Positions 4,427 through 60,792 of a DNA stretch of 64,000 nt are shown piece after piece. Under the pieces are notes generated by a model. That model was not told the origin of the DNA. It was given only the letters and a program-made list of their open reading frames with translations, and searched no databases. Each line of letters starts with the position of its first letter. Position 1 is the stretch's first letter. Origin of the DNA: Dehalococcoidia bacterium (GTDB taxonomy: Bacteria > Chloroflexota > Dehalococcoidia > Lucifugimonadales > Australimonadaceae); contig OZ241751.1 of NCBI GenBank assembly GCA_965201135.1, forward strand, positions 86,706 through 150,705. Reading direction: 5' to 3'. The translations under genes and the position numbers were made by a program.

Positions 4427-4484
4427 TTGCCTGCGGCGGCAAGTTGCGCCGCGCCCCTCCCCCCGTCAATCCCGCCCCTCCTCC

Positions 4485-4621
4485 GTCATTCCCGGCGAAA
4501 GCGGGAACCTACCCCGCGTCCCCGTCCCGCCCCCCGAACGGCGCTGCGTCCCCTTTGCCGTCATTCCGGCGTAGGCCGGAATCCAGAGGCGCGCAAGCGC
4601 CTAGCCCCCCCTCTCCCTATA
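4485..4621. repeat. Mosaic of hairpin repeats (R1, R1 variant, R3 GGCGCGCAAGCGCC, left half of R2)
   Basis: R1 lies at 4485..4513 and an R1 variant (GTCATTCCGGCGTAGGCCGGAATCC) at 4560..4584, followed by R3. The R2 left half CCCCCCTCTCCCTATA ends at 4621, where the IS5 element begins. Confidence 0.8.
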
Positions 4622-5827
4622 GAGACCTTTGCATAACCTTCCGCAATCGCGCACAATGACCGCAACCCGCAACCGCGAGGAGACTGCTATGCATCTCGAA
4701 GCCAGCGACCCCTCCTTCATCGACGCCTTCCTCCCTTTCAACGCAGGCCGCAACGACCGGCTCGACCGCATCGACCGCCTCATCGATTGGCCCAAAGTCG
4801 CAGCCCTACTCGACGATGTCCACGCCGCGCCCGAAGGACGGCCCGCCTACCGCCCGATCACGATGGTCAAGATCATCGTCCTCCAGCAGTGGTACGACTC
4901 CTCCGACGTCGGCATGGAGGAGGCGCTCCAAGACCGGCTGTCGTTCCGCCGCTTCGCGGAGCTCACGCTGACGGACGCGGTTCCCGACCACTCGACGATC
5001 AGCCGGTTTCGGAAGAAGATCACGGAGCGGGGGCTGGCGCGGGCGCTGTTCGCGGAAGTGAATCGGCAGTTGGAGGCGAAGGGCATGCTGGTGAAGCGCG
5101 GAACGCTGATCGACGCGACGATCATCGAGGCGCAGGCGCGGCGCCCGCATTCGGAGGCTGGAGCGCGGAGCGGAACGGACCCCGACGCCGCGTGGACGAA
5201 GAAGGGGAAGAAGTCGCATTTCGGCTACAAGATGCACATAGGGATGGACGCGGGGTCAGGGCTGGTGCGCGGGGTTGAGTTCACGCCTGCGAACGTTGCG
5301 GACACGGATGTTGCGGACGCGCTGATCATGGGGGACGAAGAGGCGGTGTACGCGGACAAGGCGTATGAGTCGAAGGAGCGTCGTGAGCGTCTGCGGGCGC
5401 AGGGCGTGAAGGATCGGATCATGCATCGGGGGCATAAGCATCAGACGGAGCTGCCGCATTGGCAGCGGCGGCGGAACGGGCTGCTGTCGAAGGTTCGGGC
5501 GCCGGTGGAGCAGGTGTTTGGGACGCTGAAGCGCAGCTATGGGTACTGGCGGGTTCGGTACATGGGGCTAATGAGGAACGAGGCGGAGGCGTTGTTCAAG
5601 GCGCTGGCGTACAACCTGCGGCGCGCGGACGGGTTGAGAGAGGGTTGCGCTGTGCATGGGTAGGGGCGTATTGCGCCCGTTGGGGGTACGAGGCCCTGCG
5701 AAGCCCCTAAATTGGGGGCGAGCAGGGGAGGTGGAGGCCGTTATCGGGGGATTTGGGCGGTTGAATGGCTGATTCCGGGGGCGCGGAACTGCCGATCGCG
5801 CTGATGCGAGGGTTATGCAAAGGACTC
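4622..5827 (+). mobile_element. Complete IS5-family insertion sequence (1206 bp)
   Basis: The TIRs GAGACCTTTGCATAACC (4622..4638) and GGTTATGCAAAGGACTC (5811..5827) match at 16 of 17 positions. Flanking 5-bp direct repeats CTATA lie at 4617..4621 and 5828..5832. The interior encodes a DDE transposase. Confidence 0.9.
4689..5663 (+). CDS. IS5-family DDE transposase (InsH-like N-terminal domain + DDE_Tnp_1)
   Basis: RPAYRPITMVKIIVLQQWY..LSFRRF, LIDATIIEA, HFGYKMHIGMD, AVYADKAY and VEQVFGTLKRSYGYWRVRYMGL. The ATG at 4689 follows GAGGAG; the track ORF starts at a TTG at 4629, inside the TIR. Confidence 0.9.
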   Translation: MHLEASDPSFIDAFLPFNAGRNDRLDRIDRLIDWPKVAALLDDVHAAPEGRPAYRPITMVKIIVLQQWYDSSDVGMEEALQDRLSFRRFAELTLTDAVPDHSTISRFRKKITERGLARALFAEVNRQLEAKGMLVKRGTLIDATIIEAQARRPHSEAGARSGTDPDAAWTKKGKKSHFGYKMHIGMDAGSGLVRGVEFTPANVADTDVADALIMGDEEAVYADKAYESKERRERLRAQGVKDRIMHRGHKHQTELPHWQRRRNGLLSKVRAPVEQVFGTLKRSYGYWRVRYMGLMRNEAEALFKALAYNLRRADGLREGCAVHG

Positions 5828-5932
5828 CTATAAGGGGAGAGGACGCCGCGAACGCGGCGGGAGAGGGTACTGCGTAGACGAGGCGCAGCCTCGTCTACGG
5901 GGGCGGGATTCCCGCCTACGCGGGAATGACGG
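5828..5932. repeat. Right half of the IS-split R2 repeat, a GTAGACGAGG/CCTCGTCTAC hairpin, and R1 (reverse)
   Basis: CTATAAGGGGAGAGGACGCCGCGAACGCGGCGGGAGAGGGTACTG lies at 5828..5872 and GGGATTCCCGCCTACGCGGGAATGACGG at 5905..5932. Confidence 0.8.
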
Positions 5933-6002
5933 GATGGGGCGCGGCGCGGAGAGCGAATGGCGGCGGGCGCGGAGAGAGGGGTAAGATTGCAACGGGGCGG
6001 CG

Positions 6003-6031
6003 TTGACAATATGCGCGGGCGCTGATAGAAA
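6003..6031 (+). promoter_or_regulatory. Putative sigma70-type promoter of surface-protein paralog 1
   Basis: TTGACA (6003..6008), 17 nt, TAGAAA (6026..6031), with TG one nt upstream of the -10. The identical arrangement and flanks recur at 15349..15377 upstream of paralog 3. Confidence 0.5.
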
Positions 6032-6186
6032 GGGGGTGCGCGCTAGACGCGGGGAGGCGAGGTTTGGCCGGAACTGCCCATCGCACCCTATTGCATAATG
6101 GGGCGGAGAGGTTGGACAATAGCGTCTCCTGCCGCGCCTTGCGCCCCGTGCATAGCGGGCAGGCGGTGTGATATAGTAGGGCGAGC

Positions 6187-6446
6187 GTGCGCCGAAACAG
6201 GGGCGCGGGCGCAGGATCAGAGGAACAGCGTCCGGGTAAGCCGGGCGCAAAGGACAACGAGACAGGCGCCGCGTCCAGGGTAAGCCGGGCGCGGAGGGAC
6301 AACGAGACAGGTGCCGCGTCCGGGGCAGCCGGGCGCGGAGGACAACGAGACAGGCGCCGCGTCCGGGGCAGCCGGGCGCGGAGGACAACGAGACAGGCGC
6401 CGCATCCGGGGCAGCCGGGCGCGGAGAACGGCGAGACAGACACCGG
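6187..6446. repeat. Tandem repeat of about 43 bp, 5-6 copies, each with a GC-rich hairpin
   Basis: Units start at 6230, 6273, 6318, 6361 and 6404, with a degenerate copy before 6230. The unit is GTCCGGGGCAGCCGGGCGCGGAGGACAACGAGACAGGCGCCGC, and CCGCGTCCGG..CCGGGCGCGG can pair. Confidence 0.85.
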
Positions 6447-6501
6447 CTCTCGGTGAGAGCGCCAAACCCATAGAGACTACGGCTCCACAAGGGGGGTAGA
6501 A

Positions 6502-13075: not shown

Positions 13076-13198
13076 GGCGCGCAAGCGCCGAATCCCCCCT
13101 CTCCCTATAAGGGGAGAGGACGCCGCGAACGCGGCGGGAGAGGGTACTGGGAGCGCCTCGCCCACCATGGCCGTCATTCCCGCGTAGGCAGGAATCCC
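13076..13198. repeat. Repeat mosaic R3-R2-R1, left flank of darTG
   Basis: GGCGCGCAAGCGCC lies at 13076..13089. R2 (CCCCTCTCCCTATAAGGGGAGAGGACGCCGCGAACGCGGCGGGAGAGGGTACTG) lies at about 13095..13149. R1 lies at 13173..13198. Confidence 0.85.
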
Positions 13199-14947: not shown

Positions 14948-15105
14948 GTCATTCCCGCGTAGGCGGGAATCCCGCCCCCATTGAGTCGCCCGCCCAATTG
15001 GAGGCGCGCAAGCGCCCAGATCCCCCTCTCCCTATAAGGGGAGAGGACGCCGCGAACGCGGCGGGAGAGGGTACTGCGGTCGGGGCGCAACGCGCCCCGT
15101 CTCCA
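14948..15105. repeat. Repeat mosaic R1-R3-R2-R4, right flank of darTG
   Basis: R1 at 14948..14973, R3 at 15003..15016, R2 at 15022..15077 and an R4-like hairpin at 15081..15099. Confidence 0.85.
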
Positions 15106-19091: not shown

Positions 19092-19312
19092 CCCCCTCTC
19101 CCTATAAGGGGAGAGGACGCCGCGAATGCGGCGGGAGAGGGTACTGGCGGACGGGCGCTCGCGGCGCTTGCGCGCCTCAATGGGGCGAGATTCCCGCCTA
19201 CGCGGGAATGACGATTAGGGGAGGAATGGAGATCAGCGAGCGCCGCGAGCTCCGGACCCCCTCTCCCTACAAGGGGAGAGGACGCCGCGAATGCGGCGGG
19301 AGAGGGTACTGC
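19092..19312. repeat. Repeat mosaic (R2, R1 reverse, R2)
   Basis: R2 copies at about 19092..19146 and 19257..19312. R1 (GAGATTCCCGCCTACGCGGGAATGACG) at 19187..19213. Confidence 0.8.
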
Positions 19313-37913: not shown

Positions 37914-38140
37914 GTCATTCCCGCGTAGGCGGGAATCTCGTATCCACCTCTCTCCAGAGAGGCCGTCGCATAATCTACCGTCATTCCGGCGTAGGCCGGA
38001 ATCCAGAGGCGCGCAAGCGCCGTATTCACCTCTCCCTATAAGGGGAGAGGACGCCGCGTAAGCGGCGGGAGAGGGTACTGGGAACGGCAGCCGAGAGGTT
38101 GCGCAAGGTCTCCCATCGGAGGCAGTTGCATAACCTGCAG
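37914..38140. repeat. Repeat mosaic (R1, CCTCTC/GAGAGG hairpin, R1 variant, R3, R2, degenerate IS5-TIR-like pieces, R1)
   Basis: R1 at 37914..37938, R1 variant + R3 + R2 at 37980..38080, GTTGCGCAAGGTCTCC and GCAGTTGCATAACC at about 38098..38135, then an R1 beginning at 38139. Confidence 0.8.
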
Positions 38141-38832: not shown

Positions 38833-38945
38833 GTCATTCCCGCCTACGCGGGAATCTTGCCCCCACCTCTCCCTATAAGCGGAGAGGTCGCCGGCGAAGC
38901 CGGCGTGCGCGGGTACTGCGGACGGCAGCCGAGAGGTTGCGGCAA
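38833..38945. repeat. Repeat mosaic (R1, R2 variant, CGGCAGCCGAGAGGTTGCG module)
   Basis: GTCATTCCCGCCTACGCGGGAATC at 38833..38856 and an R2 variant at 38866..38918. The trailing module is shared with 38085..38105. Confidence 0.75.
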
Positions 38946-45074: not shown

Positions 45075-45388
45075 AGCACCCTCTCCCGCCGCATTCGCGG
45101 CGTCCTCTCCCCTTCTAGGGAGAGGCGGAATGGGCGCTTGCGCGCCGCAGGGGGCGGGATTCCCGCCTACGCGGGAATGACGGTTGAGGGCAGGCGGCAA
45201 GGGGGTAGGTTCCCGCTTTCGCGGGAATGACGTGGCGCCTGGGGAACAAGGGAGACAGGACGCGACGCGCCCCGTCTATGGCGCTGTCGCGCCGAATGGA
45301 TTCCTGCCTACGCAGGAATGACGGTTGAGGGGCGCGTTGCGCCCGACCGCAGTACCCTCTCCCGCCGCGTTCGCGGCGTCCTCTCCGG
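45075..45388. repeat. Repeat mosaic (R2 reverse, R3, three R1 reverse, R4, truncated R2 reverse)
   Basis: R2 at 45075..45127. R1 copies at 45155..45182, 45204..45231 and 45296..45323. R4 at about 45251..45280, and truncated R2 at 45349..45388. Confidence 0.8.
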
Positions 45389-45511: not shown

Positions 45512-45588
45512 CGGGGTGTGGCGCAGCCCGGAAGCGCACCTGCATGGGGTGCAGGGGGTCGTTGGTTCAAATCCAATCACCCCGACCA
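45512..45588 (+). tRNA. tRNA-Pro (anticodon GGG), CCA encoded
   Basis: Manual cloverleaf: acceptor CGGGGTG/CACCCCG, D arm GCGC-AGCCCGGAA-GCGC, anticodon arm CCTGC-AT GGG GT-GCAGG, T arm GTTGG-TTCAAAT-CCAAT, then ACCA. Confidence 0.9.
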
Positions 45589-56507: not shown

Positions 56508-56729
56508 ATCGCGGATTATACCCGCGCCGCCCTTACCTTGCGTAACTCCTGCCGCCCGCTTTGCGGCGACCTCTCCCGTTCTAGGGCGAGATGGATTCGG
56601 CGTTTGCGCGCAGATAGATTCCCGCGCGGTGTGGGAATGGCGATAGGGTTATGCTAAGGTCTCCGAATCGCCGCGAAACGGGGGGAGGGCGCTGCGGACA
56701 GGAGCCGAGGTTATGCGGAGGTTCTTCCC

Positions 56730-58014: not shown

Positions 58015-58254
58015 CAGTACCCTCTCCCGCCGCGTTCGCGGCGTCCTCTCCCCTTGTAGGAGACCTTTGCATAACTCAGTTCTAGCCCGCAATTCCTCTT
58101 GGTGTTAGGAGTGAATTGGGGCGCCCCGGCCCTGCGGCAGGGGGTTATGCAAAGGACTCTGTAGGGAGAGGGGACGCGGGATTCCCGCCTACGCGGGAAT
58201 CCCGGTAGGAGGGGCGCTGGCGCGCCTCTGGATTCCGGCCTACGCCGGAATGAC
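58015..58254. repeat. Repeat mosaic (R2 reverse split by MITE-1, R1 reverse, R3, R1 variant reverse)
   Basis: The R2 reverse halves lie at 58015..58059 and 58160..58170. R1 copies lie at 58178..58202 and 58229..58254. Confidence 0.8.
58060..58159. mobile_element. MITE-1 (100 bp) with IS5-element TIRs
   Basis: GAGACCTTTGCATAAC .. GTTATGCAAAGGACTC. The flanking 5-bp direct repeat is TGTAG (58055..58059 and 58160..58164). No ORF. Confidence 0.85.
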
Positions 58255-60519: not shown

Positions 60520-60792
60520 GGTAGGTTCCCGCTTTCGCGGGAATGGCGTGGCCCGGGGGTTATGGGGAGACGGGGCTAATGCCCCGTCTGTGGCGCTTGC
60601 GCGCCGAATGGATTTCTGCCTACGGAGACCTTTGCATAACTTCCTGCCGCAGGGCCGGGGCACCCCAATTCACTCCTAACAGCAGGAGGAATTGCAGGCT
60701 GGAACTGAGTTATGCAAAGGTCTCCTACGCAGGAATGACGGCACAGTGGGCGCTACGCGATGGGGGTAGGTTCCTGCCTACGCGGGAATGAC
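60520..60792. repeat. Repeat mosaic (R1 reverse, R4, R1 split by MITE-2, R1 reverse)
   Basis: R1 at 60520..60547 and R4 at about 60565..60590. The split R1 lies at 60610..60624 plus 60725..60741. A further R1 lies at 60764..60792. Confidence 0.8.
60625..60724. mobile_element. MITE-2 (100 bp), inverted relative to MITE-1
   Basis: GAGACCTTTGCATAAC .. GTTATGCAAAGGTCTC. The flanking direct repeat is CTACG (60620..60624 and 60725..60729). The interior is the reverse complement of the MITE-1 interior with a few substitutions. Confidence 0.85.

Follow-up and report, generated by a model that had tools for sequence, protein, structure and literature searches.

The window analysed here, a stretch of 64,000 nucleotides from a Dehalococcoidia bacterium (contig OZ241751.1), contains an insertion sequence (IS) lodged inside a hairpin repeat, called R2, which recurs intact elsewhere in the same DNA, and the question that this locus raises is whether the repeat serves as the target of the element. 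An earlier note had placed an IS5-family element at 4617-5832, in the loop of an R2 unit and between two copies of a 5-bp CTATA duplication. The duplication can be read directly in the sequence (4617-4621 and 5828-5832) and the element is there, but the range given includes both copies of CTATA, and the IS proper occupies 4622-5827 (Table 1). Its ends also coincide with the points where the homology to other copies and to MITEs stops, the flanks being unrelated beyond them. The ATG of the transposase gene is preceded by GAGGAG with a spacer of 6 nt. The IS and the repeats are located in long non-coding stretches, e.g., 4427-6501.

Table 1. Features of the insertion sequence, the related MITEs and the R2 repeats in the window (positions are those of the window), and other copies of the IS with their target-site duplications.
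Feature	Position	Strand	Details
Complete IS5-family insertion sequence	4622..5827	+	1206 bp; ends set by inverted repeats
Left TIR	4622..4638	+	GAGACCTTTGCATAACC, 17 bp
Right TIR	5811..5827	-	GAGTCCTTTGCATAACC as reverse complement; 16/17 match to left TIR
Transposase gene	4689..5663	+	324 aa; DUF772 and DDE domain
Left target-site duplication copy	4617..4621		CTATA, 5 bp
Right target-site duplication copy	5828..5832		CTATA, 5 bp
Left arm of split R2 hairpin	4610..4617	+	CCTCTCCC
Remainder of split R2 unit	5833..5872	+	AG, right arm GGGAGAGG (5835-5842), then small hairpin ACGCCGCGAACGCGGCG, then GGAGAGGGTACTG
Intact unoccupied R2 core	13098..13119	+	others at 15025, 19095, 19260, 38029, 38866, 45104(-), 47118
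MITE with IS-type TIRs	58060..58159	+	100 bp; flanks TGTAG (58055-58059, 58160-58164); in R2 unit of opposite orientation
MITE, second copy	60625..60724	-	92% identical, opposite orientation; flanks CTACG (60620-60624, 60725-60729)
IS copies L117-L121	R2 loop		duplications TGTAG, TGTAG, TATAG, CTATA, CTATAA
IS copy L122	R2 loop		duplication CTAGA
IS copy L123	R2 loop		
IS copy L126	R2 loop		duplication CTATAAG
IS copies L128-L134	R2 loop		duplications TATAG; CTATA in three copies; TATAA; TTATA; CTATAA

A comparison of the transposase with Pfam revealed the DDE_Tnp_1 domain (PF01609, E = 1.4e-32, profile positions 4-200 of 200) and, N-terminal to it, DUF772 (PF05598, E = 1.1e-25), and the NCBIfam model NF033581, 'IS5 family transposase', gave 317 bits, above its cut-off of 140, which together back the family label of the earlier note; the IS1182 model reached 185 bits, under its cut-off of 270, and the remaining IS5 sub-models of NCBIfam were all under theirs. 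The size and layout (1206 bp, one ORF of 324 aa, 17-bp TIRs matching at 16 of 17 positions) are those of the IS5 group, whose members have about 1.0-1.5 kb, one gene and short TIRs, but the duplication is 5 bp long, and not the 4-bp YTAR of IS5, which is typical of the type element and does not define the family. The TIRs agree with GAGACC(T/A)TTGCA, the pattern of a lineage with the tip GAGACCTTTGCA, given for the IS5-family elements ISPg1, ISPg9 and ISNme1 (PMC4596501 Table 2). The IS3 family is characterised by two overlapping frameshifted ORFs and an rve-type domain, whereas a single ORF and only DDE_Tnp_1-type domains are found here; the IS110/IS1111 elements have a DEDD enzyme, no TIRs and RNA-guided targeting, whereas the window IS has DDE_Tnp_1, clear TIRs and duplications, and no IS110 model was among the NCBIfam matches of its transposase. 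Exact-sequence look-ups of the transposase (with two start codons), the adjoining aminotransferase and the cluster member P0124 gave no match. The protein P0001 is 98% identical to the window transposase, and identical transposases are encoded at five and at seven separate loci of related contigs. The window IS is an intact and probably recently active member of the IS5 family, IS5 group, from the lineage with ends beginning GAGACCTTTGCA.

The empty site can be reconstructed exactly, as the earlier note had claimed. Joining 4545-4621 to 5833-5900, i.e., removing the IS and one CTATA, gives ...CCCCTCTCCCTATAAGGGGAGAGGACGCCGCGAACGCGGCGGGAGAGGGTACTG, which equals the R2 unit of about 52 nt, of which the window has five intact and identical copies; the 22-nt R2 core, CCTCTCCCTATAAGGGGAGAGG, is found exactly at 13098, 15025, 19095, 38029 and 47118 and, allowing a single mismatch, also at 19260, 38866 and 45104(-), compared with 0 matches in shuffled sequence. 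The units noted earlier at 13095, 15022 and 19092 are the same as the first three of these, with the start counted three bases further upstream. The rejoined unit, folded as single-stranded DNA, has an energy of -19.3 kcal/mol (z = -2.9). The R2 hairpin, CCTCTCCC-TATAAG-GGGAGAGG, is indeed split there, but the duplication does not just coincide with the loop, since CTATA comprises the last C of the left arm (CCTCTCC/C) and TATA, and lies 1.5 nt off the dyad.

Two copies of a MITE with the ends of the IS are also present in the window. It is 100 bp long, has no gene and shares with the IS a TIR identity of 16-18 bp and nothing else; both copies are flanked by 5-bp duplications, and the MITE is presumably moved in trans by the transposase of the window IS. 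The empty site of the first copy reads, as the reverse complement, CCTCTCCCTACAAGGGGAGAGG, while the second occupies the loop of a CGTC-tagged REP hairpin, ATTTCTGC-CTAC-GCAGGAAT. The hairpins of the latter type (R1) correspond to the CGTC-1 REP family (dRS3 type), defined by a CGTC tag that stays unpaired, a stem of 8 bp that starts with AT and a loop of 4 nt (Di Nocera 2013, PMC3733652): the tag is present on 27 of 30, the stem is ATTCCCGC, and the loop is GTAG, CTAC, GAAA or GTAA. No IS is present in eight intact R2 units and some 30 REPs of the window. All three elements of the window lie in R1 or R2 loops, compared with about 26 of its 723 CTA sites, so chance is excluded.

Other copies of the IS were found in the same repeat and not in unrelated targets. 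All 16 complete copies found, comprising the window IS or its 86-98% relatives on contigs of at least four genomes or strains, lie in the R2 loop; they face either way with respect to R2 and adjoin different genes. Of three copies for which a single junction could be read, two lie there as well. One end of L126 (position 508), a close copy, adjoins non-R2 DNA, and L127 has R2 at one side only. The split halves at both junctions of the complete copies, together with the single junctions, make this a 'type 1' REP association in the sense of Tobes and Pareja (2006). The R2 flanks are 85-98% alike between the loci, and in L131 the segment bounded by the TIRs contains R2 and R1 units internally. 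The duplications of this lineage nearly all start with CTA or are the complement of such a sequence (CTATA, CTACA, CTAGA, CTACG), and R2 is targeted far more often than the more numerous CGTC REPs with a CTAC loop. The preference for a repeat family, suggested by the earlier note from one insertion, is supported and extended by these copies, by the MITEs and by more distant relatives.

The latter came from a scan of a public genome collection with the TIR tip, which yielded mostly Chloroflexota MAGs and did not reach close relatives of the window IS. Among the matches listed, 41 of 60 elements lie in hairpin loops, compared with 4.85% of 5-mers taken at random from these loci, a control that was not restricted to intergenic DNA and therefore overstates the fold-enrichment, leaving the exact centring unaffected. 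The proportion is 36/39 at the listed loci with a G+C content of at least 0.6, while in A+T-rich genomes the same TIR class is mostly found at non-hairpin sites, with only 1 of the 14 listed insertions in a loop, and thus the hairpin is not required. The arms are of at least four unrelated sequences, CCTCTCCC, ATTCCCGC, GTCCCCGC and ATTCCCGT, which counts against recognition of one sequence; the arms CCTCTCC and GGAGAGG adjoin many TIR pairs in several genomes. Outside the window lineage, 23 of 31 insertions among the matches listed are placed exactly on the dyad, and the length of the duplication follows the parity of the loop, odd loops giving 5 bp (15:1) and even loops 6 bp (11:1; Fisher p = 6e-6, among the matches listed), a relation also seen within single MITE families in single genomes. 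The 5-bp duplication is typical of this TIR class, with 40/59 of the TIR pairs listed, followed by 6 bp with 15/59. A metagenome scan with a longer left-end pattern gave one match only, in an unrelated contig of 45% G+C.

Three further ideas concerning the targets were set aside. The arms as a mimic of the joined IS ends (CCTCTC against GGTCTC at the junction) were dropped, since the ATTCCCGC and GTCCCCGC arms show no resemblance; separate transposase sub-lineages for 5- and 6-bp duplications were rejected, as both lengths occur within single MITE families in single genomes; and a 4-bp duplication bordered on either side by one more base of the IS is a disfavoured reading of the 6-bp cases, because the additional pair varies with the closing pair of the target (G..C or A..T).

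The best explanation, with a probability of roughly 85%, is that an intact IS5-family IS has a strong preference for the centre of short G+C-rich inverted repeats, in which capture of the dyad is combined with a preference for CTA. The DDE transposase would join both IS ends to the target by staggered attack, with a stagger of 5 bp, occasionally 6 or 7, in this lineage, and repair of the gaps would leave the flanking duplication. The transposition complex would favour the few central bases of such repeats, those of the R2 unit in the case of the window IS, with the cut usually falling just 5' of CTA; the same enzyme would bring the gene-less 100-bp MITE, which has the same ends, into R2 loops and CGTC-REP loops, and in the wider relatives the insertion would be centred on the dyad axis of any hairpin used. 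Most likely, a complex with two-fold symmetry takes hold of a deformable centre that is clamped by rigid G+C-rich arms, so that symmetry or deformability rather than base sequence would be recognised, and a short sequence preference (CTA in the window lineage) would be added on top. Landing in intergenic repeats would make the insertions harmless and allow the copies to accumulate. A sequence component is clearly present in the window lineage, because the duplication lies off the dyad, nearly always begins with CTA and is found in R2 over the CGTC REPs, and it could be the main determinant there.

An extreme form of the latter is pure recognition of a short motif, e.g., C/CTAnn, a 5-bp version of the YTAR of IS5, with the hairpin being irrelevant. 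The CTA start, the off-centre cut in R2 and the preference of IS5 itself for CTAG or CTAA (PMC5493358) all speak for it, but it appears unlikely when set against the loop positions of all three window elements among 723 CTA sites, the duplications TATAA in L130 and TTATA in L131, those of 6-7 bp in L121, L133 and L126, and the CTA-free loops CAGAG, TTCTG, CGAAAG and TTTTCA used by relatives. It is very improbable that insertion is random and that selection keeps the copies found in harmless intergenic repeats: every copy is intergenic and the repeats lie in long non-coding stretches (4427-6501), but selection could not put at least 16 independent copies in the same 5-7 nt of a 52-nt unit or centre 23 of the 31 listed relatives exactly on the dyad, when about 2 kb of positions that are just as neutral are available in the host intergenic region alone. 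That the IS passed from one R2 unit to another by gene conversion or homologous recombination in the R2 flanks, whose likeness does offer some homology, can hardly be reconciled with the presence of both orientations relative to R2, with duplications whose sequence, register and length (5, 6 or 7 bp) vary and which agree with the R2 variant at each site, with an unrelated MITE in R2 and in another hairpin, or with relatives in other hairpins. Finally, the view that the half-sites are extended ends travelling with the element, suggested by the arms adjoining so many TIR pairs and by the R2 and R1 units inside L131, is scarcely credible given the intact R2 units and REPs without an IS, flanks that rejoin to a normal unit with exactly one duplication, arms that differ among insertions of one MITE family, and insertions in A+T-rich genomes without arms.

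IS elements that insert into palindromic repeats have been described before, the well-documented precise cases being those of the IS3, IS110 and IS4 families, and for IS5 only a loose association has been reported so far. In work by Clement, Wilde, Bachellier et al., IS1397 and ISKpn1 are said to be located in palindrome loops, with all or nearly all copies in the repeat and the specificity set by the transposase itself. Both are IS3-family elements inserted in the palindromic units of REP/BIME repeats in enterobacteria (PMC1525189). The analogy with IS1397 drawn in the earlier note is valid for the way of working, with insertion at a constant point within the middle part of an extragenic palindrome that recurs in the genome, but not as kinship: the IS3 transposase is encoded by two frameshifted ORFs and has an rve-type DDE domain, unlike the single DDE_Tnp_1 ORF of the window IS, the duplication length differs, and the window lineage has companion MITEs and several unrelated hairpin families. 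ISRm22 of Sinorhizobium meliloti, an IS4-family element with a 'type 1' REP association (Tobes and Pareja 2006, PMC1525189), is also an IS4/IS5-type DDE element with every copy in a REP and the insertion point on the palindrome axis; it belongs to another family and host, and loop-dependent duplication length and MITE partners are unreported for it. According to two sources (PMC11208160, PMC11187229), the IS110/IS1111 elements ISPpu9, ISPpu10 and IS621 also insert with high specificity into REPs, using a DEDD recombinase and a bridge/seek RNA guide, but are described there as having neither TIRs nor a typical duplication, in contrast to the TIRs, DDE enzyme and duplications of the window IS.

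IS5 of E. coli is of the same family and group (NF033581), and resembles the window element in size, in having one gene and in its TIRs of 16-17 bp; the window transposase is about 41% identical to the proteins of enterobacterial IS5-family genes, and E. coli IS5 is not known to prefer hairpin loops. The latter is thought to need a short TA-containing motif and an easily deformed context and duplicates 4 bp, YTAR (PMC5493358), compared with 5 bp, sometimes 6-7, in the window element. IS1106/ISNme1 of Neisseria and ISPg1 (IS1126), ISPg4 and ISPg9 of Porphyromonas gingivalis belong to the IS5 family and have the TIR tip GAGACCTTTGCA (PMC4596501 Table 2), a likeness of the TIRs, and the ATR, BrickBuilt and MITEPgRS MITEs of these systems likewise have only the TIRs in common with an IS. 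IS1106 was found near dRS3 (CGTC-1) REPs (PMC1525189; PMC3733652), but this is a loose 'type 2' association with junctions that show no split REP, whereas the window IS splits the repeat precisely. The P. gingivalis MITE paper was the only one that a literature search with the TIR string brought up, and further searches found no earlier description of hairpin-loop targeting by the IS5 family, nor any of these MITEs from Chloroflexota or from sponge symbionts. The duplication of IS1126 is probably 5 bp long; no paper giving the length for ISPg1 was found in the literature searches.

The elements described here make up a widespread IS5-group lineage which, together with its MITEs, splits hairpin repeats at the centre. 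They offer a natural data set of many independent insertions in several hairpin types, with the duplication length tracking loop parity, and open the question of how a classical DDE transposase selects a structured or symmetric target. The elements and mosaic repeats occupy long intergenic regions and break assemblies in repeat-rich, G+C-rich metagenome genomes, and their recognition is of practical use for the annotation of such genomes. If the complex does recognise symmetry or deformability, the pairing of the arms would count, and not CCCTATAA itself. Perhaps, although we regard this as doubtful, the lineage reads only DNA shape and not sequence: the complex would dock on the dyad of a G+C-clamped palindrome, possibly extruded or transiently unpaired, the loop would set the stagger and with it the 5-, 6- and 7-bp duplications, and MITEs of the L131 type would seed new landing sites. 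If so, and if such hairpin-carrying MITEs do act in this way, the transposon and its target repeat would spread together through genomes.

The insertion sequence of the IS5 family (the IS) is a classical DDE element bounded by terminal inverted repeats (TIRs), with duplications of 5 bp (up to 7 bp). The ATG of the transposase gene follows GAGGAG with a 6-nt spacer between them. A domain search showed full-length coverage of both DUF772 and DDE_Tnp_1, and the NCBI IS5-family model NF033581 was matched with 317 bits (cut-off 140); the scores on IS1182 and other IS5 sub-models were under those models' cut-offs. By its domains and anatomy, the IS is not a member of the IS3 or IS110 families. The closest proteins annotated on plasmids are those of Rhizobium IS5-family genes (48% identity) and enterobacterial ones (41.5%), and identities as low as these indicate, at the level of protein sequence, that the IS is a distinct lineage within the IS5 group. 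Its TIR tip, GAGACCTTTGCA, is common to ISPg1 and ISPg9 of Porphyromonas, ISNme1 of Neisseria and their MITEs (short gene-less miniature elements), for which it has been tabulated (PMC4596501).

Positions of the IS, the related MITEs and the repeats in the window
Feature	Position	Size	Remarks
IS5-family element	4622-5827	1206 bp	bounded by TIRs
Left TIR	4622-4638		GAGACCTTTGCATAACC, read from the sequence
Right TIR	5811-5827		inverted copy of the left TIR, 16/17 match
Transposase gene	4689-5663	324 aa	sole long reading frame of the IS
Target-site duplication	4617-4621; 5828-5832		CTATA, both sides of the IS
Intact R2 units	13098; 15025; 19095; 38029; 47118	~52 nt	equal to the rejoined empty site
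One-base R2 variants	19260; 38866; 45104
MITE 1	58060-58159	100 bp	flanks TGTAG, within an R2 unit
MITE 2	60625-60724	100 bp	opposite orientation to MITE 1; flanks CTACG
R1 example sites	1631-1650; 4563-4582; 13176-13195; 37917-37936; 45159-45178
Tandem array 1	2232-2528	40-bp unit x 7.7	one CGTC-REP hairpin per unit
Tandem array 2	6228-6439	43-bp unit x 4.9	shares its 2-kb intergenic region with the IS

Deletion of the IS and one CTATA gives the empty site ...CCCCTCTCCCTATAAGGGGAGAGGACGCCGCGAACGCGGCGGGAGAGGGTACTG, which is a complete unit of the hairpin repeat R2, for which no matches in the window are expected by chance; the exact empty-site reconstruction proposed in the earlier note thus holds. 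Folding of the R2 unit as single-stranded DNA yields two adjacent hairpins. The earlier note placed the target in the hairpin loop, and this stands for the TATA taken from the six-base loop TATAAG, but the duplication also includes the final C of the left arm and is offset by 1.5 nt from the R2 dyad. The arm is present in triplicate (CCCTCTCC, GGGGAGAGG and GGAGAGGG) at window 5833-5872 and in every intact unit, so CCCTCTCC can pair either with GGGGAGAGG, forming a short hairpin, or with GGAGAGGG, forming a longer one around ACGCCGCGAACGCGGCG.

The two MITEs of the window are 92% alike and, according to the TIR search, have only 16-18 terminal bases in common with the IS. The empty site of MITE 1, reverse-complemented, is CCTCTCCCTACAAGGGGAGAGG; MITE 2 lies in the hairpin ATTTCTGC-CTAC-GCAGGAAT, a member of the other repeat family of the window, R1 (30 copies). 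All three elements of the window are therefore in hairpin loops, although only about 26 of the 723 CTA sites are within R1 or R2 loops, so recognition of a CTA motif by itself is insufficient; this explanation also fails for relatives that use loops without CTA. Random insertion with survival in neutral DNA cannot explain the sites either, offering no route to nucleotide-level precision.

Two further traces of TIRs were found in the window. Degenerate right-end-like and left-end-like TIRs face outward across 6 bp at 38101-38137 (GGTTGCGCAAGGTCTC CCATCG GAGGCAGTTGCATAACC), which looks like a tandem-element junction or a circle-junction relic; part of the left flank is repeated near 38920, and clean junctions of tandem MITEs, with 9-bp spacers, are present at another locus (L052). 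Another TIR-like end stands alone beside degenerate hairpins, with no partner within reach (GAGACCTTAGCATAACC, with one mismatch; 56647-56663, minus strand), and probably represents what is left of a decayed MITE or IS.

An exact-sequence look-up found no proteins identical to those of the window; a transposase 98% identical (P0001) is encoded at five loci of one 2.96-Mb metagenomic contig, all in R2 loops and all with different neighbouring genes. The duplications are TGTAG, TGTAG and TATAG, where R2 is in the opposite orientation, and CTATA and CTATAA. The loci of a second set of identical proteins, P0121, are likewise in R2 loops (7/7; TATAG, CTATA three times, TATAA, TTATA and CTATAA), as are a copy on a separate contig (L126; CTATAAG) and, in R2-type loops, relatives of 93% (L122) and 86% (L123) identity. 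In total, 16 of 16 complete copies found in relatives are inside the R2 loop, which bears out the proposed targeting of a repeat family; the centre of a hairpin repeat is the near-exclusive place of insertion. Where a single junction was readable, two of three copies were in R2; one IS end (L126 position 508) borders on DNA unrelated to R2, and L127 has R2 at the left side only, probably due to rearrangement. Spread by recombination via R2 homology is excluded, since the copies occur in both orientations relative to R2 and their duplications vary in register and length; judging by these junctions, they are independent transposition events.

A genome scan with GAGWCCTTTGCATAAC, one genome per species, returned at least 116 stretches, those listed being mostly from Chloroflexota/Dehalococcoidia MAGs and otherwise from taxa including Desulfobacterota, Nitrospinota and Gammaproteobacteria; as a sample of relatives, they are biased. 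When ends were paired and only pairs flanked by direct repeats of 4 bp or more were accepted, the matches listed and loci added later gave 60 distinct elements, mostly MITEs of 120-160 bp. About 40 of them have flanking repeats of 5 bp, and about 15 have repeats of 6 bp. A hairpin loop (stem of at least 7 bp) holds 41 of these 60, against 4.85% of random 5-mers from the same loci, at positions not limited to intergenic DNA; the proportion is 36/39 at G+C of at least 60% and 1/14 below 50%. The target arms (CCTCTCCC, ATTCCCGC, ATTCCTGC, GTCCCCGC, ATTCCCGT) are unrelated to each other. The arms cannot belong to the mobile element, given that many R2 and REP units are unoccupied and that insertions in A+T-rich genomes have no arms.

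Among the matches listed, insertions outside the lineage of the window are centred exactly on the dyad in 23 of 31 cases, and the duplication follows the loop parity, with 5 bp where the loop is odd (15:1) and 6 bp where it is even (11:1; Fisher p = 6e-6). Different enzymes are ruled out as the cause, because the rule is kept inside single MITE families of single genomes, e.g., a 132-bp family of CBDCOP010000007.1 and a 122-bp family of OY759972.1, the latter using both CCTCTCCC and ATTCCCGC hairpins. In 6-bp cases, the extra base pair varies with the closing pair of the target and hence comes from the target, not the element.

The Dehalococcoidia MAG CBDCOP010000007.1 (L083 2392-2523, L055 7324-7455) has the R2-type hairpin CCTCTCCC-CTTGTA-GGGAGAGG, as in the window. 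In this MAG, the duplication made by a different MITE family is symmetric and covers the entire 6-nt loop, whereas the IS lineage of the window makes an off-centre 5-bp duplication in that hairpin. At L131 (1234-2723), a TIR-bounded segment with an interior of mosaic hairpin repeats, both CGTC REPs and R2 units, is itself in an R2 loop (flanks CTATA/CTAGA), and its internal R2 has received a full IS (duplication TTATA). Elements that end in these TIRs may thus take the hairpins they target along with them and disseminate them.

The R1 hairpin, ATTCCCGC-N4-GCGGGAAT, has, in 27 of 30 copies, a CGTC tag, an 8-bp stem beginning with AT and a 4-nt loop; these are the sequence features of CGTC-1 REPs, a class that includes Neisseria dRS3 and whose listing in the defining survey lacks Chloroflexi (PMC3733652). 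The array of 40-bp units is similar to the NIME arrays of Neisseria. Rfam gave a single match in the window, one tRNA gene (45512-45585), which lies amid a REP/R2 cluster (45104-45386). For the window aminotransferase, the closest plasmid-record protein is from Thermomicrobium roseum (62%), so a Chloroflexota origin of the window is possible.

Target capture would prefer a short deformable centre between two G+C-rich symmetric arms, which would match the two-fold symmetry of the transposition complex; the MITEs of the window would be mobilised in trans by the IS transposase. A short lineage-specific sequence preference may be added to this, in the lineage of the window presumably for cutting 5' of CTA, which would account for the off-centre register and the strong bias to R2 over the commoner CTAC-loop REPs. 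It recalls the YTAR target of E. coli IS5, which is likewise thought to require a short motif and easily deformed surroundings (PMC5493358). The target may be bent duplex DNA or an extruded hairpin; with a stagger of 5-6 bp spanning a single duplex, ordinary strand transfer is a better fit than an attack on two cruciform tips lying apart.

Insertion into extragenic palindromes is established for IS1397 and ISKpn1 (IS3 family), ISPpu9, ISPpu10 and ISRm19 (IS110 family) and, on the axis, ISRm22 (IS4 family), the only IS5-family case surveyed being IS1106, merely 'near' REPs (PMC1525189). The IS acts like these precise inserters but belongs to the IS5 family. A search of an incomplete literature collection found no papers on loop targeting or the parity rule in this lineage. 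The insertion finding is real, and its first interpretation, targeted insertion into a repeat family, is upheld overall; the feature that merits experiment is dyad-centred insertion with a duplication length that follows the loop.
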